64,000 nucleotides of DNA from an uncultured virus (IMG/VR IMGVR_UViG_3300047312_000104) (taxonomy: Duplodnaviria; Heunggongvirae; Uroviricota; Caudoviricetes). The stretch lies in IMG/VR virus record IMGVR_UViG_3300047312_000104; one strand, written 5' to 3'. Of the stretch, positions 27,398 through 63,615 are shown one piece after another. The notes under the pieces were generated by a model. That model ran no database searches and had not been told where the DNA came from. It saw only the letters and a program-made list of their open reading frames with translations. How positions within the stretch are numbered: the first letter of the stretch is position 1; each line of letters opens with the position of its first letter. The translations under genes and the position numbers were made by a program.

Positions 27398-27400
27398 AGA

Positions 27401-27622
27401 TCACCTATGGTCCGCTATTTCGACCTTTTGAGCCGTAAGCCCGAGATGCAAATCTTGAACGACTTGTCCAAAATCATCGTGGGTAGCATCACTGTGGACC
27501 ACTATCCCGCCGTCCTGGTAAGTAACGGCCAACGGTACCCCGAGGTCATCACAGACCACCACCTGGGTACAGGGGAGAGTAAGGACCTTGCCAGTCGTCT
27601 TGTGGACGAACCGGATAAGCAT
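27401..27622 (-). CDS. Small hypothetical protein between RNAP genes
   Basis: 73 aa, coupled start/stop with neighbours. Confidence 0.5.
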   Translation of the reverse strand: MLIRFVHKTTGKVLTLPCTQVVVCDDLGVPLAVTYQDGGIVVHSDATHDDFGQVVQDLHLGLTAQKVEIADHR

Positions 27623-28230: not shown

Positions 28231-28265
28231 AAGGGTACCCTAACTTGGCCGGTAAAGCCAACAAC

Positions 28266-31200: not shown

Positions 31201-32681
31201 TCAACTAGTCCGCGGTTCACATACCTGATCTGGTCCCCCACCATCGCCCGAATCTTCTTCTTCGTCTTGTCGGCCATCTCACCGGGGAACGCCACCACCT
31301 TGCCAGCAATCTGATGACCACTCATCGGCGCGTGTTGGCCGGTCCGGGTATTCCGGAGAGTGGTGTACAGCTGGTTGTCTGACCCTTTAAGGGCCGCGTC
31401 CGTGACCCTCATGTCTAACCCGATGGCCGCGCTTTCAGGCGATCTTGACGGGTCAATCAAACCGAAGTGACTCGGCTGCACCCCACGGGCCTCCTTGGAG
31501 ACCGATTGGGCCGAGCTTATTCCGCCTTCACCCATTCTCGTGATACCCTGACGAAGATCGTGGGTTTCATAAGGGTTTACTTCTTCAGATGCATGAGCTA
31601 GTCCAGAACCGCGGAATATCGCGTGAATATTGGGGGTTAGGAGGCCCGACTGGAGTGACCCTAGGTTGCCCTCTCGTGTGGCTTTCCAGAGAAGCTTCTG
31701 AGCAGCTCCTGTTTGGTCACGCTTGAGGCGTTCACGAAAATGGTCTTCAGCCGAATGGAGTGACTGGAACGCTTGGGCGTCACGGTTATCCCCTGGCTCT
31801 TCGTCTTTCGCCACCCTGAGGAGCTTCTGGGTCACTCTGGTCAGCACATCCGGGGATAGGGTCTCGTGACGCTTGCCGAGTGTCAGCTCAGTGGTGTCTG
31901 GATCAACCTTGGTCCGAGCCAGGATTCCCTGGAGGGTTTGCGGTAGATGCTCATCAGGGGCTTCGCGTTCGTGTTTACGCCCCAACTTCTCCACCACCTT
32001 TTTTAGGTCCTGGTTGTCATGACCGGTTACACCGCGCCAATTCGCCTTGAAGAGTTCATCCCCCCAGGCCTGCTTCAGCGCGTCATCCCCAACCCCGAGG
32101 GCTTTGAGGAGCGGGTATAGGCGGGTGGTCGATTGACCGATCTGAACCTTAAACAAACCACTCTCTGGTTCGAGGTTTACCCTGAATCCGCGGCCTGATC
32201 CCGGCTGGGCATTGACGTGGGCCTCGACCCCGCCATTTTGTTGTTTTCTGACGTACACGCCCGGACGCAGCCGAGCCTGGTTACGGACTACCCAAGAAGT
32301 CCCATTATGGATGAATACCCCGCGGGACGTCAGGTGAGGAACGTGGGCTAGGGTTGTGTGGCGTTCATCCAACACTTGATTGGTCGCATTATCGACCAGT
32401 CGGACCTTGCCCTGGATCGGACGCTGGAGCCGTCCTCCATTGAGGATCGCCTCTTTCTCATCCTTCTTGGTCGGCTCTTTATGATTCGGCGCGTATTGGA
32501 CGTCCGAGACTTCTAGCCGGTGGGTAGCGTTCTTGAGTGGAAAACGCTCCTGGACGCCCTTGAGGGCGTGGTCATAGATATCTTTACGGTGTTGATCGAT
32601 GTCGTCGAAACGACGAAACGTTACCGCTGGTTTTGGTGCAGGGACATCCGGTCCCTGCATGTCATCGAGCAGATCCGCCAT
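28266..32681 (-). CDS. rpoB: RNA polymerase beta subunit fused to beta' N-terminal/catalytic half
   Basis: RpoB motifs (ARGVQPSHFGLIDPSRSPE, GATYEDAIVIS, GSKMSSAYGNKGVVS, KLHHTAEGKLSAR) followed in-frame by RpoC motifs (LPLLPPKYRP, RFQRKVLG..VD..GRSVI, NRAPELHR, GADFDGD). Confidence 0.93.
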   Translation of the reverse strand: MADLLDDMQGPDVPAPKPAVTFRRFDDIDQHRKDIYDHALKGVQERFPLKNATHRLEVSDVQYAPNHKEPTKKDEKEAILNGGRLQRPIQGKVRLVDNATNQVLDERHTTLAHVPHLTSRGVFIHNGTSWVVRNQARLRPGVYVRKQQNGGVEAHVNAQPGSGRGFRVNLEPESGLFKVQIGQSTTRLYPLLKALGVGDDALKQAWGDELFKANWRGVTGHDNQDLKKVVEKLGRKHEREAPDEHLPQTLQGILARTKVDPDTTELTLGKRHETLSPDVLTRVTQKLLRVAKDEEPGDNRDAQAFQSLHSAEDHFRERLKRDQTGAAQKLLWKATREGNLGSLQSGLLTPNIHAIFRGSGLAHASEEVNPYETHDLRQGITRMGEGGISSAQSVSKEARGVQPSHFGLIDPSRSPESAAIGLDMRVTDAALKGSDNQLYTTLRNTRTGQHAPMSGHQIAGKVVAFPGEMADKTKKKIRAMVGDQIRYVNRGLVDYELPDSTHMFSRVSNMIPMPEGMKSKRLAMGSRMITQSMPLKNPEAPLVQSVDREGKSFYNEMGKHAGAVHADKPGQVIGVSPDSITVLHPGGEKKEYQLYNNFPLARKTTLHNTPAVKIGDPVQPGQLLARSNFTDEHGRAAPGLNMRVGYLSGHGATYEDAIVISSSAANRLTSEHQYKQKLELGPEIHSTKTADYRAIYGDKYTPEQFKKLDDDGVVRVGQTINPGDPLIVAIGKRQGRAVGALMKSDKSAHTDATQVWEHPQPGVVTDVARTRSGIKVAVKSYEPMTVGSKMSSAYGNKGVVSSIVPDDQMPHDEEGKPLEVLLGPTGVITRSNPGLLASTLLGKVAAKTGKPYLMKSFEDKGGLADFALAEARKHGVKETETLTDPRDGRKIPGVFTGHQYLAKLHHTAEGKLSARDTGGYSVDESPARGGKEGSKRIGMLGLTSLLSSGATEFLKDAKMVRGQRNDDYWRSLKTGGTPVAPNESFANKHFLNLLRAAGVNIRNKGQGKTQLSFMTDRDVDAMAQHEIGNSGTFDFNSMKPVPDGLFDLGKTGGADGTRWSKIKLPVKIPNPLAQDPIVRILGLTNKKFESILAGQEKIGDKTGPEAIEHALKGIDVGKAIEQTKQEVKGLSGAGRDIAIKKLGYLTGLQTQGLKPDELMISKLPLLPPKYRPVLRARGVDMVHDANYLYHDVLEASKNWSEHQKEFGNAGDAYLNLYNSAKAVAGVADPVDPKHAEQGIRGMLRFAIGVKDSPKFSRFQRKVLGNTVDTIGRSVITVDPAMDMDSIGIPEEMAWKQFRPFVIARLVRSGMHAADAVKAVKNKSKQAEHALETEMSERPVVYNRAPELHRYNYVGGIAHINRGQSDISISQAVTKGLGADFDGDAIGVHVPVSKEAVNEVKAKLFPSKNLLAANSFDVHLAPSNEFLGGLYTASQKDHKKPTRVFATASDAMAAYTRGEIGVSDPVQIISDK

Positions 32682-41624: not shown

Positions 41625-44594
41625 TTAGGCCATCGGGGTAGGGGGAGCTGCGAATGACGGCGATGCAGTCATGCCTGGCTGAGGGGCAGGATCCTGGTGG
41701 ACCGGTGGCTGGACCGCCGGGGCTTTCTTGTGGGCCTTCAATGCCCTGAGGAGAACCGATGCTCTAGCACGGTCGAGATCGCGATACTGGGCGTTCTCTT
41801 TGCGTCCCATAGAGGCATAGAGGTTCTTGAGGAGCGCGTGCGGGTCCTGCCATTCGCCACCAGGGAGACCGCTGAACGCTTGTTCGGCCTGGGCGTTGGC
41901 GTCGTCTAGGGCGCCGGTATGAAACGTATACTGGTACCCGTGGGCTCCAGGTTCGGTCACACCCGACTGGGGAACGTACTGGAGTGAACCCTGGTATGGA
42001 GCCCGCTTGGTCTTGAATGGAAGTTTCTCTTCGTCGCCATGAACAGGGAATCGGTAACGCCGACCCGGGTCAGGGGCCGCCAAGACCTTGCCTTCATGGT
42101 TCAACAAAATGTATTCAGACCTGGGTAGAAGATTGATCGCATCAGCGGTCTTCTCTACCGGGGGCGCTTCGGCATGGCCCATCAGGCGTTTAATCTGTTC
42201 CACCGTGATCTCGGGGTCGCGGAAAAAGTCGTCGGCGTGCATGAACGGAATCCCGGCCGCTTTGGCTGCACCGCCATCGTGGTCATGATTATCCCCGACC
42301 ATCATGACCTTGGTTGGGTCCACCCCGTGACGCTTGATCGCGAAATGGATCATCGTCGGGGCCGGCTTCAAGGTGTCAGGATCCGGCTTTTCGGTATAGA
42401 CGATGTCATCCAACATCCCGTCCATGTGCCCGATGGTCTCATGCTGGATCTGTTCCAAGATCTCAGGAGTCATTCCCGCGTGCCGTGAGTCAGGGTGCAT
42501 CGAATGGTTCGTTACTCCGATGATCTTGAACCCCATCCCCTTGAGAGGACCGAGGGTTTCCTTACGACCAGGCATGATCTGGTGGTTATTTAACTTGGAG
42601 TAGGAAGTACAGTTGTTACCACCTGGCCACTCTCTGATGGTCCCGTCAAGATCTACCAAGACCGCTGGGGAGTTATCGGCCCGATCAGGCTCCTCATGGG
42701 GCATGATGGCACAACGCGGGCCTGCGACCTCTTGCGAAGGACTACCGGCCAGTTCAGTGGCCAACTTCTTAGCGGTCATATCTTCGCAAGCTTTTTCGCC
42801 CTCCCTGATAGCGGCGAGCTCGGCGTCGATCATGGACCGACGCCACTGAAGATCCTTGCGATCCTTCAGTGATTCCAAGAACTCGATAGCTTCCTTGAAC
42901 GGAATTAACCCGAAGTCTTCGTTGTCTTCATGGGTGGTCCCGCACTTCCCGCCGTCCATCGCCAGATACAGGTGGTTCCGGAACCCGTCGTATCCCTTAA
43001 CGATATCGGATCCTTCGGGCCACACAGTCTCTTGGATCCCGATAGGTCTCAGGTGCAGGAGCTTCCGATCCGCCTCTTCGATGGATTCCCGGTAAGCCGC
43101 AAAGGCTGGCTCTTCCCCTGGGTCGATTCCACCGCCAGGAAATTGCAGGAAGTCTTCCTTCTTGATCGCCACTACCCCGCCCTGGCTGTACACAACCGTC
43201 TCGGAGCGAGACCGAAGTTTGGGGCTCTTACTCGCCTGTTTTTCGTTCTGGTTTGGTTCGGTGCTGGTGACGATGGCGCGAGTCAGGTTGACGAATGCTT
43301 TTTTTGCAATCTGAGCGCCGTTCCTTCCGGTCGAGAATCTTTCGAGGGTCGAAGTTAGCCCGGCCATCAGATATCGGTTTGACGACTTTGCCGGGCGTCC
43401 GCCCGTTGGGGTTCTCTGGGGGGCGTTTGTGGCGAGCCACCGATCCTCCGGGATGTTGGGATCCTGATTCCTATTAGCCGCTACCTTGGGGTCACGCTTC
43501 ATACTTCTAAACTTTGTTTCGATCTCATTAGCCTGATCGTGAGCAGTGCTATACTCAACCCCGCGTCTGATGAGCTCTCGCTCGTAGACCTCGTGGGCGA
43601 GAATAAATGAACGGTCTTCTTCAGCGACTTCATTATCGAGCCATATCTCATCACTAGGGATGAAATCGTAGACAAGAGAATGACCGCCGCCAATGAATTC
43701 TGCCAGGAGCAAATTTCTAACCGCAACTCCGTCCACCAACTTGACTTTCATCCCACTAGGGAGTACCGAGTAGTCCTCCGGGGGATGCTTGCGGAAGAAC
43801 ATCTGCTTTAACTTTTCACCGTAAGTGGCCTGTTGGGCCGCAGTTTTATGGTGAGCGAGAGCATTGACAAGATTCTTCCGTTGATGATGTTTCCACCACA
43901 GACCGCCCAGGCCAGCCAACCCGGCAGCGGCTAAGGTTCCACCCAGCCCATATTTGGAAGCGTTGGAAAGTTGCCCCTTCGTCGGTCCCTCAACCCCGAA
44001 GAGACTCACCCGTGGATCACCTTCAACCACAGGGGCACTGTGGGCCCCATAGGCAGAACCGGCTAACCCTCCCACAAGGGCGCCGAGCTCCGTCATGCGC
44101 GCAGGGTATTCACGGGCGGCCTGATACTGCTGGGCATGGGCTGCCACCTCAGGATCGGCCAGCCGATGTTTGACTGCCTCTGAGACACCCGCGAGCGTCT
44201 TGTTTGCCTTCCTAAGACGTGACCCTTCAGTGGCCCGATCGAACAGTTCGGTGGCGATTCCGGCCCCTCCCCCGAGAGCCGCCCCGGCACCGGCCCCAGC
44301 AGTCATGGCTGGCCCGACCGATCTATCACCGGCCATCAGTACTCCGGCCTTGGCTCCCAACCCCAACCCGCCCGCTATCGCGCCAGGGACAGCCGAAGAA
44401 AGAAGTCGATACCAAAGCGGATGTCTGCGCGCCTGAGAGATCGCATGTTGGGTATCTTGGGCGTCGACAATGTCGGCAGCTCTGTCAGGAGTTAGCCCGA
44501 CCTCAGGAGCTTTGGATGGAAGAAGCCCTACGGCCTTATCGATTGTCGACGTGACCGGAGTAGCGGCTGAGAGGACGGAATCGAGACCCGCCAC
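41625..44594 (-). CDS. Multidomain protein: hydrophobic N-terminus, HExxE zincin-like domain, Nudix hydrolase, HAD phosphatase
   Basis: AHEVYER; Nudix box GGIDPGEEPAFAAYRESIEEAD; HAD motifs DLDGT, VTN, KP, MVGD...D. Confidence 0.75.
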   Translation of the reverse strand: MAGLDSVLSAATPVTSTIDKAVGLLPSKAPEVGLTPDRAADIVDAQDTQHAISQARRHPLWYRLLSSAVPGAIAGGLGLGAKAGVLMAGDRSVGPAMTAGAGAGAALGGGAGIATELFDRATEGSRLRKANKTLAGVSEAVKHRLADPEVAAHAQQYQAAREYPARMTELGALVGGLAGSAYGAHSAPVVEGDPRVSLFGVEGPTKGQLSNASKYGLGGTLAAAGLAGLGGLWWKHHQRKNLVNALAHHKTAAQQATYGEKLKQMFFRKHPPEDYSVLPSGMKVKLVDGVAVRNLLLAEFIGGGHSLVYDFIPSDEIWLDNEVAEEDRSFILAHEVYERELIRRGVEYSTAHDQANEIETKFRSMKRDPKVAANRNQDPNIPEDRWLATNAPQRTPTGGRPAKSSNRYLMAGLTSTLERFSTGRNGAQIAKKAFVNLTRAIVTSTEPNQNEKQASKSPKLRSRSETVVYSQGGVVAIKKEDFLQFPGGGIDPGEEPAFAAYRESIEEADRKLLHLRPIGIQETVWPEGSDIVKGYDGFRNHLYLAMDGGKCGTTHEDNEDFGLIPFKEAIEFLESLKDRKDLQWRRSMIDAELAAIREGEKACEDMTAKKLATELAGSPSQEVAGPRCAIMPHEEPDRADNSPAVLVDLDGTIREWPGGNNCTSYSKLNNHQIMPGRKETLGPLKGMGFKIIGVTNHSMHPDSRHAGMTPEILEQIQHETIGHMDGMLDDIVYTEKPDPDTLKPAPTMIHFAIKRHGVDPTKVMMVGDNHDHDGGAAKAAGIPFMHADDFFRDPEITVEQIKRLMGHAEAPPVEKTADAINLLPRSEYILLNHEGKVLAAPDPGRRYRFPVHGDEEKLPFKTKRAPYQGSLQYVPQSGVTEPGAHGYQYTFHTGALDDANAQAEQAFSGLPGGEWQDPHALLKNLYASMGRKENAQYRDLDRARASVLLRALKAHKKAPAVQPPVHQDPAPQPGMTASPSFAAPPTPMA

Positions 44595-54220: not shown

Positions 54221-56020
54221 TCAATCAACCAAGTGCCAAGACCCTTCGATGGAGTTAACCAGCTGGGATGTCCCGTTCGGATACTGGAGGGATGAACAGT
54301 GGAGCCAATTGGACGGCCCTTCGTTGTAGGATTCCTGAAGTTGCCCGCATGTACCAACCTGCTTAACCCGCCGTCTAATGGCTGGCGTGTGGGCGTGCCC
54401 GCTGGTGGATTGCCCGTAACTGTTCTCCATCGCGACCAACCCGCCCTTAGAACCGTTGGCCCCTACGTGCCCGTGGGCCCCGCATTCGACCCCGCCAATC
54501 TTATAATCCTCGTCGATCTTCAACCACCTGACTTGCTCAGGATGGGTGAGATGACGTTCGACGGCATGCCGAAGTGGGTCGAGGCCGCGAATCACAGCTC
54601 CGGCCAACTCAAGCCCGATAAGGGTGTTCTGCGGATCACGGTGGAAGCCAAGTTCAGCCAGGTATCGGTCTAGGAACTTATCGTGATTCGATTTAACGAT
54701 AATCACCTGTTCGTAATACTCGCACAGCAAGTTAACAACATCCGCCAAGCCCTTAACCTCTTGGCCGAGGTCAAGCTTGTTCATGGCGGACAGTTGGGCC
54801 CGCATGGTGAGGTTCTTAGCTTCATGGTGGTTGATCGACTTACCGTCGAAGGCGTCGTGGAGGATGATGGTCCTGGGACGAGCAACCTCGGTAAGGCTCC
54901 CCGGTCCATCCACGAAGGCCGCGAACGCCCCCTGGTCGGTTGCCCCGGCGTGGAGGTCACCCAACACGAGTGCCTCTGGGGCGTACGGACGAACCTTGCC
55001 GTCAGGCATATACAGCTGACCAAGATCCGCAAATGCCCCGCGAGCATCCGCTTCCAGCTGACGATAGTGGAACCTGTGCTCGTCAGCGAGTTCCACCACG
55101 ATTGCCGCCAAGGCGTGATCATGGTTGGCGATGTAAGCGGTCCGCATGCTCGCGAACGCGTGCGCCATCTCCGGGTCTGGATCGTAGCTGGGGACCGTCA
55201 CCGCCCCGGTGGTCATCAGGGCCACGGGAAGTTGGGTGTTGGAGTTAGGGACCAGCTTCAGGAATTGCTTGGGGGACCCGTAGATGAAGCTTCCGTCCCG
55301 TTGGCCAATTCGGGCCAGTCCGGTCAGAGGATCGATCTGCTTGGCAGAGCACCGGATTGCCGACACGAACAAGTTCCGGTTTAGCCGAATGTCCTCGGTC
55401 AGGATCAGCTTATCGGCAAAGGCTGCGTGCAACCCAGCCTTGGGGTGGGAGGCGGTATCGGTCGACGGTATGATCAGGAGGGCGGCATCGTGGATCTTGC
55501 AGTACGACTCCAATGAGGCCAAGAACCCAAAGTGCGGCTCACACCCCGTTACCGCGGTGGTGATGACGAACCTACGGTGCTTCGCCACCTGGTCCTTGAG
55601 GGCCTTGAATCGCTTGGGGGTAAAGAGATCGTCGATGATCTCGACGAAATACTCAGGGTGGGCCCCCTTGGAAGCCTCCATAAGGGATCCGAAACTATGG
55701 AAGTGCTCTTTAACCTGGTTGCGGGTGTACCCCGTTGTGGTGGTCAGCTCGGACCACGTGAGGTGGCGTCCAACCTTCTTGCACGCCTTCGCGTAACTCT
55801 CCAACACGTCTGACTTTTGTTTATCGTGCGCTTCGTAGATACGCGCCTTACCGGTGGTGATCTTCGGGATCTTAACCCCGGATCTGGCCGCTAATTTCAA
55901 TCGATCCCTAAAGGTGGTGCGGGCTAAGCCTAGCTCGGCGGCGGCGTCGGTAGCGTTCCCTTTGTGGCGCTTGAGGGCCTTGACGGCGGTGTCGAGGTCC
56001 TTCTGGCTGACTAGAGACAT
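54221..56020 (-). CDS. HTH + calcineurin-like metallophosphoesterase
   Basis: N-terminal HTH (AAAELGLARTTFRDR); GDLH, HDAFD, SNHD, HGH, GHAH motifs. Confidence 0.75.
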   Translation of the reverse strand: MSLVSQKDLDTAVKALKRHKGNATDAAAELGLARTTFRDRLKLAARSGVKIPKITTGKARIYEAHDKQKSDVLESYAKACKKVGRHLTWSELTTTTGYTRNQVKEHFHSFGSLMEASKGAHPEYFVEIIDDLFTPKRFKALKDQVAKHRRFVITTAVTGCEPHFGFLASLESYCKIHDAALLIIPSTDTASHPKAGLHAAFADKLILTEDIRLNRNLFVSAIRCSAKQIDPLTGLARIGQRDGSFIYGSPKQFLKLVPNSNTQLPVALMTTGAVTVPSYDPDPEMAHAFASMRTAYIANHDHALAAIVVELADEHRFHYRQLEADARGAFADLGQLYMPDGKVRPYAPEALVLGDLHAGATDQGAFAAFVDGPGSLTEVARPRTIILHDAFDGKSINHHEAKNLTMRAQLSAMNKLDLGQEVKGLADVVNLLCEYYEQVIIVKSNHDKFLDRYLAELGFHRDPQNTLIGLELAGAVIRGLDPLRHAVERHLTHPEQVRWLKIDEDYKIGGVECGAHGHVGANGSKGGLVAMENSYGQSTSGHAHTPAIRRRVKQVGTCGQLQESYNEGPSNWLHCSSLQYPNGTSQLVNSIEGSWHLVD

Positions 56021-56164: not shown

Positions 56165-56240
56165 TGGTCCTACCCCTGGGAATTGAACCCAGATTGCTCG
56201 CTCTTCAGACGAGTGCCTTGACCACGTCGGCCAGAGTAGG
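56165..56240 (-). tRNA. tRNA-Phe(GAA)
   Basis: Cloverleaf; anticodon arm CTCGT-CTGAAGA-GCGAG; TTCAATT T-loop; encoded CCA. Confidence 0.92.
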
Positions 56241-56438
56241 TTACGGAAACATGCGCCTTACGGCTTCCATCTCGGCTTCTTCGATCGCCTTAACGGTTGT
56301 GCCTATAATGTCGGCGGCGGACTGTCTTGACGCATCCATGAGGTCCCCCATGTGGACCCCCTTGAGCCAAAGCATCCCCATCGACGGTGAGTCGAAGAGA
56401 TCGCTGATGTCATGGTCGTGGGGCCAAATGTGTCTCAC
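56241..56438 (-). CDS. Small hypothetical protein inside tRNA cluster
   Basis: GTG start with AGGA upstream; stop codon abuts tRNA-Phe position 1. Confidence 0.45.
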   Translation of the reverse strand: MRHIWPHDHDISDLFDSPSMGMLWLKGVHMGDLMDASRQSAADIIGTTVKAIEEAEMEAVRRMFP

Positions 56439-56453
56439 GTGAAGTCCTTTGAA

Positions 56454-56546
56454 TGGTGGGAACCGGTGGAGTCGGACCACATGCCTCGTAGAGGATCGGA
56501 GCTACAATCCGATGGCAGGCCAACCCCGCCCTTATTTGCGTTTCCC
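56454..56546 (-). tRNA. tRNA-Tyr(GTA), atypical 8/4 fold
   Basis: TCGGA-TTGTAGC-TCCGA anticodon arm, variable arm, A73, CCA. Confidence 0.75.
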
Positions 56547-56550
56547 ATGA

Positions 56551-56636
56551 TGGCGGAAGCCGGTGATCCTGCCTCACAGACCCGAAGGTCCCAACCGCTT
56601 AGCAAGCGGCGTCGAGCCTTGCTCGATTCGACTTCC
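56551..56636 (-). tRNA. tRNA-Ser(GCT), 8/4 fold
   Basis: GCCGC-TTGCTAA-GCGGT anticodon arm, long variable arm, G73, CCA. Confidence 0.82.
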
Positions 56637-56640
56637 AAAA

Positions 56641-56730
56641 TGGCGGCGCGCTGAGCGGTCGAAGCCCCAACCCTCTCGGGTCTCATCCGGGTTCAAACCG
56701 GAGCCCACCCCATTGGTGAGTTAACGCGCC
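56641..56730 (-). tRNA. tRNA-Ser(TGA), 8/4 fold
   Basis: TCCGG-TTTGAAC-CCGGA anticodon arm, long variable arm, G73, CCA. Confidence 0.85.
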
Positions 56731-56739
56731 ATAGGTTAT

Positions 56740-56772
56740 AAAAGAACAAACCCCCGGGTTTTCCCGGGGGTT
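56740..56772 (-). terminator. Intrinsic terminator (attenuator) in front of Ser/Ser/Tyr/Phe tRNAs
   Basis: AACCCCCGGG-AAAA-CCCGGGGGTT then TGTTCTTTT, ~10 nt before tRNA-Ser. Confidence 0.85.
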
Positions 56773-56800
56773 CTTGAGTCGCAGTCTCGTGGAGACGTTG

Positions 56801-56869
56801 TTACTCTCGACCTCCGGCATATGCCGAGGAACTTGAATAACTAAACGAAAAGGACGACTGGGCGATCAT
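56801..56869 (-). CDS. Ser/Phe/Tyr-rich leader peptide MIAQSSFSFSYSSSSAYAGGRE
   Basis: 22-codon ORF with 8 Ser, 2 Phe, 2 Tyr codons just upstream of the terminator. Confidence 0.8.
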   Translation of the reverse strand: MIAQSSFSFSYSSSSAYAGGRE

Positions 56870-56899
56870 GTGATTAATTATTGGGATCGGGATAGAAAC

Positions 56900-57205
56900 T
56901 CAAGTGTCTTCTTCCGGCATGTCCCGTTCTAGGTCGAACGACGGATCGTACACGATGTCCTCTACGATGTCGCACAGGTCCTTAGGGTCCCACCCGGCAT
57001 CCTCGCAATGGGTCCACACGCACTCAACCATGTTGGCCGCTGCCCACAAAGCCGACTCGATCTGACCGCTGTGGTGGAGAGCCATCCGAAGTTTGTTCAG
57101 ACCAGTATCTTCATCTTGGGTCACAATCCCAATCACGACCGCGATCCCGCGCTTCTTCAGCGCTTGGATCAACTCACCATCGGTCGCCATATCGATTGGG
57201 GTCAC
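56900..57205 (-). CDS. Hypothetical acidic protein
   Basis: 101 aa ORF. Confidence 0.5.
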   Translation of the reverse strand: MTPIDMATDGELIQALKKRGIAVVIGIVTQDEDTGLNKLRMALHHSGQIESALWAAANMVECVWTHCEDAGWDPKDLCDIVEDIVYDPSFDLERDMPEEDT

Positions 57206-57882
57206 GAGACAACTACCAGGTCAGGTTTGACCAACAAGGTAGTGGTCGTGACCGCGCGTCCAACTCTCGCCGCCACAGTAGTGTCGGGAGTAACGTCGTA
57301 ACGGCCGGGCGTGGAGGTCAGCCAGTAGTCCGATCCAACCGTAAGGGTCGCGGCCCCGACGATAAGAGACCAGTCAGGAAGATCCAAATGATCGCCCGCT
57401 ACCAAGACAGTCCCGGGAGTACTGATGAGAGCGTCGGCGGCCATGATGCCGATTAGTTTGTAAACCTTGGACCCGTCCACGAATGCTTGCGCGTAAGCGA
57501 GCCCAGCCCCTGAGGCCCTCACGGCCATCCCCTGGAGGAGCGCCGCCGAGGTGGTGATCTGAAGAGCCTGGGAGGTTGAGGTGACGGTTACGGTCGAGGA
57601 CCCATCGTAGAATCGAAGGTATGTCGTCCCTGAATCGAGCTCCAACCAGGTGTCGCCCGCGACGGGGCTACTGGGGGCCCCGGTGAGGACCCTAAACCAG
57701 ACCCGACCGTCGCCACGAATTCTGTGCTGGGCTACCCCGTGGTTTTGCCATTCCTTAACCACATCGGCGTCATTAACCGTGATGAGGGTCGATTCGGTTG
57801 CGGCGGTAGAGGCCGGGTTGGCCTGATCCAAGGTGGTCCTGGAAGTATTCCCAGGGGTCCCAACATTACGGATCACGGGCAT
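57202..57882 (-). CDS. Putative virion structural (fibre/decoration-like) protein
   Basis: APSSPVAGDTW and LTVGSDYWLTSTPG...VGRAVTTTTLLV patterns. Confidence 0.5.
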   Translation of the reverse strand: MPVIRNVGTPGNTSRTTLDQANPASTAATESTLITVNDADVVKEWQNHGVAQHRIRGDGRVWFRVLTGAPSSPVAGDTWLELDSGTTYLRFYDGSSTVTVTSTSQALQITTSAALLQGMAVRASGAGLAYAQAFVDGSKVYKLIGIMAADALISTPGTVLVAGDHLDLPDWSLIVGAATLTVGSDYWLTSTPGRYDVTPDTTVAARVGRAVTTTTLLVKPDLVVVS

Positions 57883-57956
57883 TCCGTCACGTTAGACCAA
57901 GGGTCACGATTGACAATCCGGACCCATCATCATGATGGGGCCCCAAGGAGACTCCT

Positions 57957-58673
57957 ATGTCGGTAAAGATGTCCATCGGGGTGTGCGGGCGGGCCAGACA
58001 TGGGAAAGATACCTCGGCGCTACTCATGAAGCGCATCTTCGAGGACCGTAAGATCCCCTGCCAGGTCATCAGCTTTGCCGACCCCCTGAAGGACTTCCTG
58101 ACCGCCATGGTGGGTAGGGCAGAGCCGTTCCGGGGTACCAACGAACAGAGGTCAGCCCCCATCCCCGAGCTCCTATGGGCTGACCTTGCCCCCAGATTCC
58201 TCCGTGGAGCCCTAAAGTCCTGGGGACCTGGGTGGTGTCGCCCTATCGTTTATCTTCTGCCTGAGAGGTTCCTGGTGGGCCTGGTGGGGGAGCATCTAGG
58301 GTACCACCCCAACGGACGGCAGATGATGCAGCTCTTCGGGACCGAGACCATCCGGGAGAACCTTTGTGAGTCGACCTGGCTCAAGATAGCAGACAACCGG
58401 GCCCGTGGGTTCAACGGGGTGACGATCGTGGCCGACGTCCGATTCCCCAATGAGGCCCGCCCCAAGTGGGCCGGGGGAATGTTCGATCTAGTCATAAAGG
58501 TAGTCAGGGCAGGCCAGCCGGTCATCAACCACCCCTCGGAGTGGAGCGTCGACCTGGTCCCCCCTGGGTACTTCCGTGCCGTGATAGAGAACAACGGGAC
58601 CGAGGACGACTTATTTTTGAAATTGTTAGAGATCATTGACGATGAGTTTAAGATTTATAACCACAATCATTGA
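57957..58673 (+). CDS. Deoxynucleoside monophosphate kinase
   Basis: GRARHGKDT P-loop, SFADPLK, RQMMQLFGTE..R, DVRFPNE, HPSE. Confidence 0.85.
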   Translation: MSVKMSIGVCGRARHGKDTSALLMKRIFEDRKIPCQVISFADPLKDFLTAMVGRAEPFRGTNEQRSAPIPELLWADLAPRFLRGALKSWGPGWCRPIVYLLPERFLVGLVGEHLGYHPNGRQMMQLFGTETIRENLCESTWLKIADNRARGFNGVTIVADVRFPNEARPKWAGGMFDLVIKVVRAGQPVINHPSEWSVDLVPPGYFRAVIENNGTEDDLFLKLLEIIDDEFKIYNHNH

Positions 58674-58903
58674 AAGCACTTATGAAACAATTTATGGCCT
58701 TCACAGACCCAGAGACCAGTAAGGGGATCCTAATAGACATCCAGCACATCATAGCGATCAAACCAGCGAAGGTTGTGTCGGGGCCCCTCCAGACTACGAT
58801 CGAGATGGAGTATGGGGACATGGTCGTCTTGGAGCACCCAGATGTAGTGTTTGGGCGCTTTAAGGACATGGCCGCCCATGGGGTCACGATCTTTCTAAAG
58901 TAG
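58670..58903 (+). CDS. Small hypothetical protein
   Basis: ~74-77 aa ORF following dNMP kinase. Confidence 0.45.
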   Translation: MKALMKQFMAFTDPETSKGILIDIQHIIAIKPAKVVSGPLQTTIEMEYGDMVVLEHPDVVFGRFKDMAAHGVTIFLK

Positions 58904-58926
58904 CAGTCAAGGACAGGAGGCAGCGC

Positions 58927-59334
58927 TTGAAGCCGATTTTTCAACCGAACGATGTAGATTGCTTCCGCGCCTGTTTCGCAACACTGTTGGAAATACCCAT
59001 TGGGCTCGTCCCGAGGACCCCTAAGCGGGCCGGGCTCCGTGGGCAGCTTAAGTTTTACCAAAAATGGCTAAAACGTATGGACCTGACATACGTCGAAATC
59101 CCGCTGCTACCGGGTGGCAGAACTCCGTGGACTACTCTGGATACCCCAACGCATGGGATCCTGACCATCCAGGAGCGATTAAGTAAAAATAACCACGCGG
59201 TTGTTGCTTACGTGATAGATGATTCGATCCATATCGCGTTTGATCCCAGCACCACTGGGGTCGTGTACGAATCAGATAGGTTCGTCTCAATCGGGTTTGT
59301 GGTCAAGGCAGCTAAGGCGCCGCCCCCAGCTTAG
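58927..59334 (+). CDS. Putative papain-like (C39-type) cysteine peptidase-fold protein
   Basis: Q....DCFRAC, HAVV, FDPS (Cys-His-Asp order). Confidence 0.5.
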   Translation: MKPIFQPNDVDCFRACFATLLEIPIGLVPRTPKRAGLRGQLKFYQKWLKRMDLTYVEIPLLPGGRTPWTTLDTPTHGILTIQERLSKNNHAVVAYVIDDSIHIAFDPSTTGVVYESDRFVSIGFVVKAAKAPPPA

Positions 59335-59585
59335 TAGCCGGCTATCATGACGAGGTCCAGTCTCGTCCCCGGTAAGGCTCCGGCTTCCCACAGGGTCTTT
59401 CGTCGATCCAAGGTAAGCCCCACATCGGCAGTGACCAGACAGGGGACCCCATGGTTGTGCCCGAAGGTAAACGCCGCCTCTTTGGCGGCGTCACCCACGA
59501 GCGTCATTGAGTTCCACACGAACCGCCGCGGGTGCGGGGTAACCCACGACCACACGTAGCATGATAGGTCGAATCCCTGCCCCAC
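59331..59585 (-). CDS. Ubiquitin-like-fold small protein (tentative)
   Basis: 84 aa; 'LDRRKTLWEAGALPGTRLDLV' resembles a beta-grasp C-terminus. Confidence 0.35.
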   Translation of the reverse strand: MGQGFDLSCYVWSWVTPHPRRFVWNSMTLVGDAAKEAAFTFGHNHGVPCLVTADVGLTLDRRKTLWEAGALPGTRLDLVMIAGY

Positions 59586-59588
59586 TTG

Positions 59589-60104
59589 TTACTTCCGCGG
59601 GCGCAACTTATTGATGGCCCGCTGGGCCTTCTGTCGTTCGTAAGGCTCAAGCTTATCGATGAACAGTATCGAGTTGAGGTGATCCAACTCGTGCTGCGCG
59701 ACCGTAGCGAACAACCCCACCGAATCCCATATCTGGTGGTTACCCATTTCGTCTTGGTACTTCAGGGTAAACCGTGCGTGTCTCTTGACCTGACCGTGGA
59801 CACCGGGGAGTGACAGGCACGACTCCCGATACACTGAAACACCCGAGGGGTCCGCGATCTCGGGATTGCACACCACAGTAGGGGTCCCTTCGGCGTAGTC
59901 CCGGTGGGGAACCAGAACGAAGAACCGCTCGGGGATCCCACACTGGGGGGCCGCGATAGCGAGCCCATTAGCCTGGCGGCATGTCCGGCGCATCAGGTCG
60001 ATGATACCGAGGAACCCAACGGTCCCGAAGTCTTGCTCGGGGACCGGAACAGTGGGGGCCCGGAGTTCCTGGGACGGGTATCGGTAGATCGGGAGAGGCT
60101 TCAT
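59589..60104 (-). CDS. def: Peptide deformylase
   Basis: GLAIAAPQCG, ESCLSLPG, QHELDHL motifs. Confidence 0.93.
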   Translation of the reverse strand: MKPLPIYRYPSQELRAPTVPVPEQDFGTVGFLGIIDLMRRTCRQANGLAIAAPQCGIPERFFVLVPHRDYAEGTPTVVCNPEIADPSGVSVYRESCLSLPGVHGQVKRHARFTLKYQDEMGNHQIWDSVGLFATVAQHELDHLNSILFIDKLEPYERQKAQRAINKLRPRK

Positions 60105-60289
60105 TCGTCGGTCTCCGGCAGTGTGGTTCCGGTGGCCCCGTAGAGCCCCATGAATACCAACCCCAATTCCTTGCAGCGTTCCTTGGCTTCCGCTTCGTCC
60201 ACCCCTTCAACTATTTCGATGAAGTGGGAAGTCTTACGGGTCATGGGGTCGTGGATCGGCATGGCCGCCGACCAGAGCAGCTTCTCCAT
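60101..60289 (-). CDS. Small hypothetical protein
   Basis: 62 aa, coupled to neighbours. Confidence 0.45.
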   Translation of the reverse strand: MEKLLWSAAMPIHDPMTRKTSHFIEIVEGVDEAEAKERCKELGLVFMGLYGATGTTLPETDE

Positions 60290-60504
60290 TAGATCTCTCC
60301 AGAGAGTTGCGACACGGTCAGGCCGGTGAGCTTGGCCATGCGGCGCATCAGCCGCAGAGACGGGGTGGGGCGTTGTCCGGATTCGATGAGGGAAAGGTAC
60401 GCGGGGGATATCTCAAGCTTGGTGGCCATCTCGAACTGGCGCAACTTCAGCTGCTTCTCTCGGGCGTCCTTCCAGATGTCGCCCAGCTTACGGCGCTTTG
60501 CCAT
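60289..60504 (-). CDS. XRE-family HTH regulator
   Basis: MATKLEISPAYLSLIESGQR.TPS. Confidence 0.88.
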   Translation of the reverse strand: MAKRRKLGDIWKDAREKQLKLRQFEMATKLEISPAYLSLIESGQRPTPSLRLMRRMAKLTGLTVSQLSGEI

Positions 60505-61102
60505 TTTGAACCTTCCGCAATACCTCGATCGAGTTCTTGATACAAGCTAGCTTGTCCGACAGCGAAACGATCTGGCGCATAAGACTAGACGGTTTGCCCA
60601 GATCAGCAGCCACCGCCACCGAGATGGCCAAGAGGGATCCTAGGATCGGTTCCAGCAGATCAGCCATGTCCTTCAAGACGCTCAACTGATCAATCCCGAT
60701 CCCACCGGCCGGCTGGGCGACCGTCCAGGTTCCGTCATTAACGTTCGTGGTAGTGAGGACAGATTCGATCTTGTCGCGCGTCTCCCCCACGACTTGCATG
60801 AAGTTCACGTCAGTCTTAGCTGGCGTCACCGGTGTCGGGGCCAACGGGGCAACCTCAATGGGGCGTTCAGTCGCGATGTCGTACCCGGGACGAATCTGGA
60901 GGGTCGAGTAAGCCTTCTCGCGCGGCGGTTCCTGGATGAGCGAACCGTCCTGTCGTTTACCGACTGAACTAGGGAGTCCCCACCGGAAAGCCTTCTCCAT
61001 GTAGATAGGCTTATGGGTGTACACGGCAGTCATGCCGTGGAAGTCACAGGCGAGCCAGATGTACTCAGGGGGAATGTTCTTCCAGAAGGGATCTTCGGTC
61101 AT
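60488..61102 (-). CDS. Hypothetical protein
   Basis: 204 aa ORF. Confidence 0.5.
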   Translation of the reverse strand: MTEDPFWKNIPPEYIWLACDFHGMTAVYTHKPIYMEKAFRWGLPSSVGKRQDGSLIQEPPREKAYSTLQIRPGYDIATERPIEVAPLAPTPVTPAKTDVNFMQVVGETRDKIESVLTTTNVNDGTWTVAQPAGGIGIDQLSVLKDMADLLEPILGSLLAISVAVAADLGKPSSLMRQIVSLSDKLACIKNSIEVLRKVQNGKAP

Positions 61103-61108
61103 CGGGGC

Positions 61109-61303
61109 CTATTCGGAGTTGCGGGTGTAGTGGAAGATGATGGTGGCGACTGAGGCCGCGAGGAGGCAGCCATACACGGGATAGCCGTATCTGGCCATGA
61201 CGATCGACAAGATGACCACGATGGCCCAGAAGAACACGATGGCGCACAGACTATGCCCGACCCTGGCACAGAGGGCCTTGATGCACAATAGGAGGAAGTT
61301 CAC
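61109..61303 (-). CDS. Small membrane protein
   Basis: Two hydrophobic helices. Confidence 0.5.
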   Translation of the reverse strand: MNFLLLCIKALCARVGHSLCAIVFFWAIVVILSIVMARYGYPVYGCLLAASVATIIFHYTRNSE

Positions 61304-61662
61304 GCGGGGGTCTCCTCGGAAGATCCGCTCGTTACCGATTCCATGACGACTATCCGGATCAGGTCGTTGGAGTCTAGCTGTAAAGTAAACTTGCCGTCAA
61401 AGATATCGGTCAACTGCTGGTCCGAGATGTCGAGAGTTTCACTAGAAGGGAACTGGTAGGAGGTTTCGAACCTGAAGAACACTTGGGGGTCGTGAGGGTA
61501 AGCCCCGGCCTGGATGTCCTTGGACGTCATCCCGAAAGGACAACAGGTCAGGGTCCCACGGTACTTCCGATCTCCTACGACCAGGTCAGCCTCGGGGACA
61601 CTATGGAGAGGCTTCTGGACCGCAAAATCCCCATACCCGTTACACGATAGGAGGTGTGGCAT
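61300..61662 (-). CDS. Hypothetical protein
   Basis: 120 aa ORF. Confidence 0.45.
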   Translation of the reverse strand: MPHLLSCNGYGDFAVQKPLHSVPEADLVVGDRKYRGTLTCCPFGMTSKDIQAGAYPHDPQVFFRFETSYQFPSSETLDISDQQLTDIFDGKFTLQLDSNDLIRIVVMESVTSGSSEETPA

Positions 61663-62104
61663 CGGGGGTCTCCTTTACGGCCAGATCGGCAATGAGGAGT
61701 TCCTTGGGGAACACGACCGTCATCTCGGGCTGGGCCTCCAGGACCTTCTCGGACGATTCCCCGACCGCCTCGACCTCGCGGTCCTGGAGATCCTGGTCGT
61801 ATGAGTTGACCCGTTCCTTCTTCCCAAACGATTCAGGGTCGTACGGGGCTCTCTGGCTGGAGAGCTTGGCTCGCGACTCGTCCGTCAAAGGGTTACCTTG
61901 ATCGTCCAAGGGGACCCCCGGGGAGACCAGGCGGTCTCGGTCCGCCACGTACATACCACGGAGCAATATATTGTGCCGGTAGGCGTCTATGCCCCTTAGG
62001 AGCTTCGACTGTTGGATCATCCGGATGTGCTGGATTGGGTCAAACCCGAGAGGATCCTTAGACATCCCGGGGGTCTTTGTGGTTGGCGGCGTAGCGGATG
62101 ACAT
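61640..62104 (-). CDS. Hypothetical protein
   Basis: 154 aa ORF (start may be MSKD at 62065). Confidence 0.45.
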   Translation of the reverse strand: MSSATPPTTKTPGMSKDPLGFDPIQHIRMIQQSKLLRGIDAYRHNILLRGMYVADRDRLVSPGVPLDDQGNPLTDESRAKLSSQRAPYDPESFGKKERVNSYDQDLQDREVEAVGESSEKVLEAQPEMTVVFPKELLIADLAVKETPDATPPIV

Positions 62105-62666
62105 CTTTCTCTGATGTCAGGATATGTGATACATCGACTTGACCGTTTGGAGCCTGGGCCGGAGTCGTGATGGACTCGTCGTTACGTACCATGGTTATAT
62201 CACCATTCGCCCCAACCCGAAGCTTCTGGACCGGTATCGTGACGCCTACGCTCGCGTTAATCGAGTCGGCCAACGGGACAGGATACATGATGCAAGGCGA
62301 CACGTTACGGTCGTGCAGGTTAACGGTGTCGCCCGGGTAACCGATGATCTCGGTAGGGATTCGACGGGCTTTGGACTTGGATCCAGAATCGTTGAAGTGA
62401 CTCGGGGTTCCGCCGGTTTCTAGGGCCTTGGCCCGCATAACCTTGTGGTAGTCATAGCCTGGACGCCAGGCCGAGAAGGCCTCTTGGAACTCTCTCTTGG
62501 CATCGAAAGCTTTCTGAGCGTCGTCGACCGCCGTTTTAGCTTTAGCCGCGGCCTTCTCGTCTGCCGCCTGTTTTAAGTAAATGACGATAATCGGCCAGCC
62601 GAGGATCGCGGCCGAGAAGACTATGGTGGGGACGACGACCCACATGAACCAAGAGAGGGTAAACAT
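62058..62666 (-). CDS. Membrane-anchored hypothetical protein
   Basis: N-terminal transmembrane helix. Confidence 0.5.
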   Translation of the reverse strand: MFTLSWFMWVVVPTIVFSAAILGWPIIVIYLKQAADEKAAAKAKTAVDDAQKAFDAKREFQEAFSAWRPGYDYHKVMRAKALETGGTPSHFNDSGSKSKARRIPTEIIGYPGDTVNLHDRNVSPCIMYPVPLADSINASVGVTIPVQKLRVGANGDITMVRNDESITTPAQAPNGQVDVSHILTSEKDVIRYAANHKDPRDV

Positions 62667-62667
62667 A

Positions 62668-62919
62668 TTAGGCCTTCACTGTGAGGAGTTCTTTGAAGAT
62701 ACGCTTGAGCCGGCCAGGCCCATCATACGGGCCATGGTACGAAACTGTCCAGGAGGCAACGTCGTCACGACCAGCAACGGTTGACCGGTACTGGGACCCA
62801 AGGGGAGTCGGGTGAGCGCGAAACAGGGCGCCGCAGATGTGGCGTGTAAGCCACCAGAGGACCTGACCGAGCAGGAGCCCTAGACCCAAGTTAAGGATAA
62901 AGGTTAGGTGGAAGTCCAA
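62668..62919 (-). CDS. Small membrane-anchored protein
   Basis: N-terminal hydrophobic helix; TTG start. Confidence 0.4.
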   Translation of the reverse strand: MDFHLTFILNLGLGLLLGQVLWWLTRHICGALFRAHPTPLGSQYRSTVAGRDDVASWTVSYHGPYDGPGRLKRIFKELLTVKA

Positions 62920-62970
62920 GGGGTCCCCTTATGGGCTACAGGATAAGGGGATTAACTGTGAGTCAAGAGA

Positions 62971-63045
62971 TGGTTCACGAGCAGGGATTCAAACCCCGGT
63001 TCATCGCTTCAAAGGCGACAGTCTTATCAATTAGACGACTCGTGA
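62971..63045 (-). tRNA. tRNA-Gln(TTG)
   Basis: GTCGC-CTTTGAA-GCGAT; U1-A72; CCA. Confidence 0.9.
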
Positions 63046-63049
63046 GTGA

Positions 63050-63126
63050 TGGTTGCCCCAGGAGGTCTCGAACCTCCATCACCGGCTTCAGAGACCGGGG
63101 TTATTACCTGGTTAAACTACAGGGCA
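63050..63126 (-). tRNA. tRNA-Gln(CTG)
   Basis: CCGGT-CTCTGAA-GCCGG; U1-A72; CCA. Confidence 0.9.
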
Positions 63127-63131
63127 TCGAA

Positions 63132-63208
63132 TGGTGGGGGCGGTGGGATTTGCACCCACAGGGAAGATGCGTTTAAGGCATCCACGTCTGCTGTTCCGTC
63201 ACACCCCT
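63132..63208 (-). tRNA. tRNA-Leu(TAA), short variable loop
   Basis: GATGC-CTTAAAC-GCATC; A73; CCA. Confidence 0.85.
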
Positions 63209-63211
63209 AGA

Positions 63212-63287
63212 TGGTCCCCCTCCCCGGATTTGAACCGGGATCAGACTGTTTTTGAAACAGCCGCCTCTGCCGTTGGGCTAGAAGGGG
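63212..63287 (-). tRNA. tRNA-Leu(CAA), short variable loop
   Basis: GCTGT-TTCAAAA-ACAGT; A73; CCA. Confidence 0.88.
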
Positions 63288-63288
63288 A

Positions 63289-63364
63289 TGGTACCGATCC
63301 TGGGGGTTGCACCCAGACTTTGTAGTCTCTCAAACTACTGCCTCTGCTATTGGGCTAGACCGGT
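63289..63364 (-). tRNA. tRNA-Leu(GAG), short variable loop
   Basis: GTAGT-TTGAGAG-ACTAC; A73; CCA. Confidence 0.88.
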
Positions 63365-63367
63365 AAG

Positions 63368-63443
63368 TGGTACCGAGAGAGGGATTTGCACCCACACTGA
63401 ACTGGTTCTAAGCCAGCTGCCTCTGCTGTTGGGCTATCTCGGC
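63368..63443 (-). tRNA. tRNA-Leu(TAG), short variable loop
   Basis: GCTGG-CTTAGAA-CCAGT; A73; CCA. Confidence 0.88.
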
Positions 63444-63473
63444 GTGATTACTGTATTGATGTCAAAGATCTAT

Positions 63474-63508
63474 AAAACACAAAAACCCGACCTTTCGGCC
63501 GGGTTTTT
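63474..63508 (-). terminator. Intrinsic terminator (attenuator) in front of Leu x4/Gln x2 tRNAs
   Basis: AAAAACCCGGCC-GAAA-GGTCGGGTTTTT then GTGTTTT. Confidence 0.85.
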
Positions 63509-63549
63509 GGGTTCACCTTTACGGTGTTTTCGGTCTAGGCGACCATCCC

Positions 63550-63615
63550 TTAACCACGGCCATGAGGCTGAGGTAACTGTTGGAGCAACAGGAGGAGGGA
63601 CAGGGTGGTACGCAT
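63550..63615 (-). CDS. Leu/Gln-rich leader peptide MRTTLSLLLLLQQLPQPHGRG
   Basis: 21-codon ORF with 7 Leu (CTG, CTC, TTG, TTA) and 3 Gln (CAA, CAG) codons upstream of the terminator. Confidence 0.8.
   Translation of the reverse strand: MRTTLSLLLLLQQLPQPHGRG

Follow-up and report, generated by a model that had tools for sequence, protein, structure and literature searches.

In the enterobacterial attenuators thrL, leuL, trpL, hisL, pheL and ilvL, a short open reading frame (ORF) with a run of regulatory codons is followed by a strong intrinsic terminator, and the 5′ arm of this terminator can instead enter an antiterminator, which a ribosome at the leader stop codon masks; termination also occurs when the leader is not translated. 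A single leader can sense several amino acids, as in thrL and ilvL, and the principle reaches into the translation apparatus, since Escherichia coli pheST has an attenuator with the pheM leader peptide and predicted attenuators precede other aminoacyl-tRNA synthetase genes. To our knowledge, leader-peptide attenuation has otherwise been described only for genes of amino-acid biosynthesis, transport and synthetases. Here, we describe two elements of the same layout in a 64,000-nucleotide (nt) stretch of DNA from an uncultured phage of the Caudoviricetes (IMG/VR record IMGVR_UViG_3300047312_000104; this whole stretch is called the window below), in each of which a leader ORF and a terminator lie ahead of phage tRNA genes. 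We consider it rather likely that both elements function as attenuators in which a ribosome senses specific amino acids and thereby controls transcription into a phage tRNA operon, forming feedback loops on tRNA supply.

The phage elements differ from the enterobacterial ones in preceding tRNA genes and not biosynthetic enzymes, in sitting in a phage and in having no Shine-Dalgarno sequence. They also bear no sequence or covariance-model likeness to the Rfam leader families: Leu_leader, His_leader, Thr_leader and Trp_leader gave no match at the gathering score, and at E<=10 only sub-threshold hits resting on the terminator hairpin. The pheST/pheM system likewise places a leader rich in cognate codons over a gene of the translation apparatus, but its product is a synthetase and it responds to charging, whereas the products here are tRNAs; because the regulated genes are tRNA genes, the loop would feed back on the sensed molecule itself. 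The E. coli tRNA-Phe genes pheV and pheU, considered as a leader precedent, were rejected, as each is transcribed from a plain promoter and neither a leader ORF nor a terminator precedes it. T-box riboswitches likewise sense the state of a specific tRNA and choose between terminator and antiterminator before translation-related genes, but they bind the tRNA directly and need no ORF, and the T-box model matched nothing in the window, at the gathering score or at E<=10.

In mycobacteria, leaderless short ORFs encoding polycysteine are reported to act as Cys-responsive attenuators (bioRxiv 10.1101/834739). As described there, they share with the phage leaders the lack of a Shine-Dalgarno sequence, the sensing of the supply of one amino acid and the control of what lies downstream, and they differ in belonging to another host group and in controlling protein-coding Cys genes; to that extent, they may serve by analogy as a precedent for regulatory leaders of this kind. 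The literature within our coverage, including passages of PMC3082878, contained no account of attenuation of tRNA genes, phage or cellular; this coverage leaves aside most subscription journals and the old T5 tRNA papers. The mechanism itself is textbook, and its use on tRNA genes is probably the new element.

The two units consist of the following features, given for each unit in the order of transcription.

56869 (ATG) to 56801 (TAA), minus strand: leader ORF 1, 21 codons after the ATG plus stop, MIAQSSFSFSYSSSSAYAGGRE (ORF listing)
56738-56779, minus strand: region 3 and intrinsic terminator 1, 11-bp stem (56773-56748), then U tract, -21.6 kcal/mol
56641-56730, minus strand: class II tRNA-like gene, anticodon UGA (Ser), G73, encoded CCA (custom scan; ARAGORN at its ps90 setting only)
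56551-56636, minus strand: class II tRNA-like gene, anticodon GCU (Ser), G73, CCA (custom scan; unaided fold)
56454-56546, minus strand: tRNA-like element, anticodon GUA (Tyr), A73, CCA (custom scan)
56241-56438, minus strand: small ORF of ~65 amino acids between the Tyr-like element and tRNA-Phe (inner GTG start chosen by eye)
56165-56240, minus strand: tRNA-Phe(GAA), last gene of the unit behind terminator 1 (ARAGORN, Rfam)
63615 (ATG) to 63550 (TAA), minus strand: leader ORF 2, MRTTLSLLLLLQQLPQPHGRG (ORF listing)
63470-63509, minus strand: intrinsic terminator 2, 13-bp stem (63509-63480), then U tract, -20.9 kcal/mol
62971-63443, minus strand: tRNA cluster 2 (ARAGORN; Rfam 41.5-55.9 bits), comprising the next six genes
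63368-63443, minus strand: tRNA-Leu(UAG) (ARAGORN, Rfam)
63289-63364, minus strand: tRNA-Leu(GAG) (ARAGORN, Rfam)
63212-63287, minus strand: tRNA-Leu(CAA) (ARAGORN, Rfam)
63132-63208, minus strand: tRNA-Leu(UAA) (ARAGORN, Rfam)
63050-63126, minus strand: tRNA-Gln(CUG) (ARAGORN, Rfam)
62971-63045, minus strand: tRNA-Gln(UUG) (ARAGORN, Rfam)

The initial annotation, made from the sequence alone, had proposed that two tRNA clusters share the order short ORF, strong terminator, tRNA genes, and this layout was confirmed at both, with leaders of 22 codons plus stop (leader 1, upstream of cluster 1 with Ser, Ser and Tyr, then the small ORF, then Phe) and 21 codons plus stop (leader 2, upstream of cluster 2 with Leu x4 and Gln x2). 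The terminator hairpins (GAACCCCCGGG AAAA CCCGGGGGUUU for terminator 1; CAAAAACCCGGCC GAAA GGUCGGGUUUUUG for terminator 2, which reaches -24.2 kcal/mol as an extended hairpin) have the two longest stems of all terminator-like sites in the 64 kb, the next longest having 8 pairs. As an outside reference, we used 80 IMG/VR loci that share a tRNA-Leu D-arm motif; together with the window, which contributes three, they give 259 tRNA blocks that have free space upstream, and terminators 1 and 2 are the most stable of the 22 hairpin-plus-T-tract sites upstream of these blocks. The distance from terminator to first tRNA is ~17 nt in cluster 1 and ~36 nt in cluster 2, and transcription that starts upstream must therefore pass the terminators to enter the tRNAs.

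The codons of each leader match the tRNAs behind its terminator, as the initial annotation had also claimed. Leader 1 contains eight Ser codons (TCG x3, TCC x2, TCA, AGT x2), two Phe (TTT) and two Tyr (TAT), and leader 2 seven Leu codons (CTG x2, CTC x3, TTG, TTA) and three Gln (CAA, CAG x2), so that cognate codons make up 12 of the 21 positions after the start in leader 1 (Ser/Phe/Tyr) and 10 of 20 in leader 2 (Leu/Gln). Among the 693 short ORFs of 12-40 codons in all six frames of the whole window, each leader ranks first for its own set of amino acids (Ser+Phe+Tyr for leader 1, Leu+Gln for leader 2). Sliding codon windows taken without an ORF requirement reached the observed counts in 16 of 127,876 and 65 of 127,882 cases, the leaders' own overlapping windows included. 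The specificity is reciprocal, with 12 Ser/Phe/Tyr residues against 1 Leu/Gln residue in leader 1 and 1 against 10 in leader 2 (Fisher P = 8.9e-5).

A scan upstream of other tRNA clusters, of the kind that the initial annotation had proposed, was made on the same set. We scored the best upstream short ORF of each block against the tRNAs of that block; 235 of the 259 blocks had such an ORF, and the lowest two corrected P values among them are those of the two leaders (9.1e-5 and 4.6e-4), with a null-like remainder. No comparable case was found elsewhere, either in these loci or in 45 further blocks from phages T5, Arash, D69 and vB_OspM_OC, where the best corrected P was 9.7e-4, in an annotated gene and with no terminator. 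Because of the short-ORF ranks, the sliding windows, the reciprocity and the block comparison, we conclude that the codon match is real and unusual.

The best of the 45 further blocks is a Phe-rich frame of 17 codons in Arash (VFFFVLLAIEKFTQEFTI; L130, ~locus 13503), which ends 2 nt before tRNA-Phe and tRNA-Gln, within an annotated restriction endonuclease gene. In T5 (NC_005859.1; L127, locus 14628-14756), T5.070, an ORF of 42 amino acids with six Cys, ends 6 nt before tRNA-Cys; judging from its CxC, CxxC, CxxC spacing, the product is probably a zinc-ribbon protein, and the echo of tRNA-Cys, seen in no other small T5 ORF relative to the tRNA that follows it, is likely a coincidence. Two weak IMG/VR candidates (L030 and L075) were rejected, having no terminator and the look of coding sequence.

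At the synonymous level, none of the six cluster 2 tRNAs is without a codon in leader 2 (for this peptide and the phage codon usage, P = 0.08), and these codons include the rare TTA, which makes up 4% of the phage's Leu codons, and CAA, which makes up 24% of its Gln codons. In leader 1, the Phe, Tyr and AGY codons, six in number, all end in U (TTT x2, TAT x2, AGT x2) and are read by G-U wobble (P = 0.0014), and the phage's genes favour the C-ending forms. The U-ending and rare codons fit a design that maximises sensitivity, but an AT-richer composition of the spacer could account for them as well.

Each leader RNA also contains sequence that can pair with the 5′ arm of its terminator, and the relevant segments are as follows.

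56800-56841, minus strand: attenuator 1, regions 1 and 2 (predicted helices; palindrome)
63552-63561, minus strand: antiterminator 2, 5′ strand GGCCG-U-GGUU, spanning the three final codons of the leader and base 1 of its stop codon

To follow these pairings, we folded each leader RNA up to the terminator loop, with the 3′ arm not yet made and with bases masked by a ribosome to 13 nt past the first base of the A-site codon, and took as switch measure the energy gained when the terminator 5′ arm may pair upstream. In free leader 1 RNA, region 1 (56841-56823, control codons 10-16) pairs with region 2 (56818-56800); once region 2 is freed, 56817-56803 pairs with 56779-56764. The gain in leader 1 is 0.0 kcal/mol with no ribosome, -5.6 to -12.4 kcal/mol with the A site at codons 10-14 (AGU UAU UCA AGU UCC), with its maximum of -12.4 at codons 12-13, and near 0 from codon 16 to the stop. 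In leader 2, where the antiterminator strand pairs with AACCCGGCC (63505-63497) inside the terminator 2 5′ arm, the gain without a ribosome is -1.4 kcal/mol. It reaches -8.2 to -14.9 kcal/mol while the A site lies on codons 5-14, which comprise the Leu run, CAA, CAG and UUA, and is 0 to -0.9 kcal/mol from codon 19 to the stop, being 0 at the stop itself. The small gains without a ribosome mean that, in silico, an untranslated leader favours the terminator in both units. Of 200 dinucleotide-shuffled leaders, none reached the observed difference between control codons and stop for leader 2.

As a positive control, the identical script was applied to E. coli K-12 thrL, which gave -2.4, -13.7 and 0 kcal/mol with no ribosome, at the control codons and at the stop, respectively (terminator -20.9 kcal/mol), and to leuL, which gave 0, -8.4 and 0 kcal/mol (terminator -16.9 kcal/mol). 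In these folding models, both phage antiterminators share the terminator 5′ arm and form only with a ribosome on the control codons, and the phage elements are, in predicted size and profile, like the textbook attenuators thrL and leuL, the maximal gains of leader 1 and leader 2 being similar in energy to those of the two enterobacterial leaders. The sequence itself shows both ORFs with their codon content, and also the terminators and the alternative pairings.

Cluster 1 was the part of the initial annotation that stood only partially. Its assignment of Leu x4 and Gln x2 to cluster 2 was upheld by ARAGORN and Rfam together, and tRNA-Phe of cluster 1 is a standard call; the two Ser and the Tyr genes are missed at default settings, and only a custom scan recovered all three. 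ARAGORN by default and the Rfam tRNA model, even at E<=10, returned none of the three, and the relaxed ps90 setting of ARAGORN recovered Ser(UGA) alone, together with two further hits inside long ORFs. We therefore ran over both strands of the window (128 kb) a minimal-cloverleaf scan, in which a match had to have an acceptor helix of 7 bp followed by NCCA, an anticodon stem of 5 bp whose 7-nt loop contains U33 and R37, and a T arm beside the acceptor strand. Its matches were six of the seven ARAGORN tRNAs and exactly three further elements, with anticodons TGA, GCT and GTA, and nothing else.

Unaided folding gave a five-arm class II cloverleaf for both Ser elements and not for the Tyr element. 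In the Ser(GCU) element, a D stem of 6 bp closes a loop of only 3 nt, and UUC is missing from the T loop; the Tyr element is the weakest of the three, with six of seven acceptor pairs and a 9-nt linker ahead of the D arm. Their discriminators (G, G and A) and long variable arms agree with what we take to be the identity rules for Ser and Tyr. On these sequence features, we treat the Ser, Ser and Tyr elements as putative non-canonical tRNA-like genes, with Tyr the least secure. All three elements, Ser(UGA), Ser(GCU) and Tyr(GUA), lie in tandem and have 6-bp D stems and small D loops. The phage T5 record likewise has several tRNA-like stable RNAs, annotated without an assigned function, within its tRNA region. 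tRNA-Phe lies 214 nt downstream of the Tyr element, beyond the small ORF, which has no family match and is given in the ORF list as 79 amino acids (GTG at 56480), a length at which it would overlap the Tyr element.

Taken as attenuators, the two units would work as follows. RNA polymerase would transcribe the leader while a ribosome translates it. Where charged tRNAs for the control codons are plentiful (those for Leu and Gln at leader 2, those for Ser, Phe and Tyr at leader 1), the ribosome would reach the stop codon and there cover the upstream strand of the antiterminator, so that the terminator would form and the tRNA genes would remain untranscribed. With slow reading of the control codons, the ribosome would stall on them and leave the antiterminator strand free to pair with the terminator 5′ arm, and the polymerase would continue into the tRNAs and the genes beyond. 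Each unit would thus be a negative feedback matching the supply of a tRNA set to its demand, because its products are the tRNAs that read the control codons. For this scheme to hold, ribosomes would have to translate the leaders, transcripts would have to begin upstream of them, and the polymerase would have to be coupled to the ribosome; on the sequence alone, slow decoding of Leu/Gln or Ser/Phe/Tyr codons would be expected to favour read-through.

A leader written in the codons that its downstream tRNAs read would let the unit measure its own tRNA supply and feed back on it, and would bear on how phage tRNA genes are regulated and on why phages carry them. The window is a clean case because one genome has two independent units with reciprocal amino-acid specificities. 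The leader and terminator together would give an experimental handle on when the phage needs its own tRNAs, and could let tRNA-cleaving defences be examined as triggers of phage tRNA production. A wider proposal, which we regard as doubtful, is a modular tRNA-on-demand system in which codon-matched leaders sense limiting host tRNAs (through usage mismatch, host shut-off or anticodon-nuclease cleavage) and only the matching replacements are transcribed, so that the attenuators would be counter-defence sensors served by the grouping of the tRNAs by amino acid. The initial annotation's idea that the units sense the loss of tRNAs to host defence nucleases does not conflict with the data and is speculation.

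Several observations weigh against two functional attenuators. The initial annotation's reading of the loci as attenuators is strengthened by the ribosome-dependent, thrL/leuL-like antiterminators and by a spacing of terminator and first tRNA that is too short to hold a standard promoter; it is weakened at the point of initiation, where neither leader has a Shine-Dalgarno sequence. The duplexes with the anti-Shine-Dalgarno sequence come to +0.3 and -2.4 kcal/mol, whereas the median is -6.0 kcal/mol across 45 long ORFs, each taken at its best start, and -2.6 across random ATGs; translation of the leaders would need a leaderless start or re-initiation. For leader 1, re-initiation is conceivable because its ATG lies 30 nt past the stop of the upstream gene and in the same frame, and a leaderless start because a -10-like AATAAT ends 7 nt ahead of the ATG, both as read by eye; -10-like hexamers stand just upstream of each leader ATG, as judged by eye only. 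A consensus scan found no sigma-70-type promoter before either leader, and a k-mer search of 19 intergenic regions no common phage promoter motif. Nor did the consensus scan show a sigma-70-type site in the interval from the terminator to the tRNAs of either cluster. The phage's own polymerase, described below, may be the transcriber of both tRNA units.

Further points on the same side concern the strength of the individual signals. The switch in leader 1 is only marginally above its shuffles (9 of 200 reached the observed difference), and on a cruder measure, the number of paired arm bases, 116 of 300 shuffles reached it. Three of the four tRNAs of cluster 1 are the non-canonical ones missed by standard tools. 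The design was found neither in the 256 other IMG/VR blocks nor in the 45 blocks of the four cultured phages, and therefore does not characterise phage tRNA arrays in general; no relative turned up in phage records, IMG/VR, JGI metagenomes or GTDB genomes. The finding was chosen by eye, post hoc, from a very large scan, which calls for some look-elsewhere discount.

The lack of initiation signals and the post hoc choice also favour a rival account, which we judge rather unlikely, namely that the terminators are ordinary ends of upstream units, that leaky read-through or a weak overlapping promoter feeds the tRNAs, and that the mini-ORFs are untranslated chance frames in a pyrimidine- or T-rich spacer. 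Strong gene-end terminators do stand directly before phage tRNAs, with no mini-ORF, for example at the reference loci L034, L051 and L017, and the -10-like hexamers TATAAC and TACAGT 6-7 nt before the first tRNAs of the window, seen by eye and with no -35, keep alive the idea that the tRNAs have a start of their own. This account would, however, need chance to produce, twice in one genome, top codon ranks, reciprocity and a ribosome-dependent antiterminator of thrL/leuL size, and composition alone would not set the ATG and the stop so that the stop falls on the antiterminator strand. The codon content, being cluster-specific and reciprocal between the leaders, likewise argues against the less probable idea that the mini-ORFs are translated and modulate termination as general sensors of translation capacity or of ribosome-polymerase coupling, and not of specific tRNAs. 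A ribosome stalled for any cause in the first two thirds of either leader is predicted to yield the antiterminator, which suits such a sensor, and at leader 2 a frame of 61 amino acids (63704-63519, minus strand) that ends within a small hairpin just 5′ of terminator 2 could occlude the terminator hairpin in the same way; yet the GTG start of this frame is overlapped, not preceded, by GGAGG, and it has no counterpart at leader 1.

Direct, T-box-like binding of tRNA by the leader RNA, through codon-anticodon and NCCA-end pairing and with no ribosome, seems to us very improbable. Many leader codons are complementary to the anticodons of the downstream tRNAs, and by eye the antiterminator strand of leader 2 contains UGGU, the complement of ACCA, but this UGGU is paired inside the helix and not displayed by a bulge, the UGGC that would suit the G73 Ser tRNAs is missing from leader 1, a specifier-loop architecture is absent, and, apart from the sub-threshold hits on the terminator hairpin, no other Rfam leader or riboswitch family beyond the T-box model matched at the gathering score or at E<=10. 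We retain ribosome-sensed attenuation as the favoured reading of both units. The 61-codon GTG frame overlaps leader 2 in another frame, and its stop and the terminator stem are 10 nt apart; it probably arose by chance, and would occlude the terminator if translated.

ARAGORN and Rfam agree on seven tRNAs in the window, every one on the minus strand. The six of cluster 2 are transcribed in the order Leu(UAG), Leu(GAG), Leu(CAA), Leu(UAA), Gln(CUG), Gln(UUG), and each is 75-77 nt long with an encoded CCA. The four tRNA-Leu (63132-63443) have 76-77 nt and a short variable loop, not the long arm usual for bacterial tRNA-Leu, with a D loop lacking GG, the T loop UGCAAAU and a retained A73 discriminator. 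At least 121 IMG/VR contigs contain the D-arm motif of these genes, TAGCCCAAYRGCAGAGGC, mostly within ARAGORN-called tRNA-Leu genes, and on this basis the short tRNA-Leu type seems widespread among phages. On the same strand, 3′ of cluster 2, follow ten protein genes (59589-62919), including an XRE-type helix-turn-helix regulator and a peptide deformylase; there is no strong terminator between the cluster and these genes, and terminator 2 may therefore gate more than tRNAs.

The source of the window is an uncultured phage with a guanine-plus-cytosine content of ~58%, and the genes used to compare it with cultured phages are the following.

54221-56020, minus strand: T5 A1-like DNA transfer protein (phrog_1745, E = 1.5e-93)
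25511-32681, minus strand: phage-encoded multisubunit-type RNA polymerase genes (domain matches)

Even the nearest cultured phages are distant: through the A1 protein, the closest is Ochrobactrum phage vB_OspM_OC (35% identity), and the closest full-length polymerase matches are Vibrio phage D69 and Salmonella phage Arash (~31% identity each). The tRNA regions of these three phages have no synteny with the window and no codon-matched leaders. In searches of both tRNA regions against phage records, blastn returned nothing or only a 76-nt tRNA-Leu match at 78% identity, and exact patterns of leader 2, tRNA-Gln and tRNA-Phe had 0 matches in IMG/VR. Relatives of the neighbouring A1-like protein numbered 0 in IMG/VR and 0 in GTDB genomes; JGI metagenomes yielded a single locus, 38% identical and lacking any tRNA within 9.9 kb, and one fragment of 30 residues.

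Near-identical DNA covering parts of the stretch was present in six DNA sequencing runs from soil or rhizosphere, with no RNA run among those listed. In four of the six, low-depth contigs carry the leaders and terminators without any difference, these being near-identical copies only. In one low-depth contig of run X1, 56481 is joined to 62857, skipping the 6375 bases between the tRNA clusters; the shorter side of this junction has only 21 letters and no long repeat accounts for it, and it could be an assembly artefact or a deletion variant.

The first RNA polymerase protein (1471 amino acids) contains Rpb2 domains and, behind them, Rpb1 domains 1-2, so that beta is fused to an N-terminal portion of beta′, and the second (628 amino acids) has Rpb1 domain 5, the C-terminal part of beta′. 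Other products of the window are peptide deformylase, dihydrofolate reductase, a deoxynucleoside monophosphate (dNMP) kinase and an HNH endonuclease, and a NUDIX domain and a HAD-type hydrolase domain are joined in one protein of 989 amino acids (41625-44594, minus strand).

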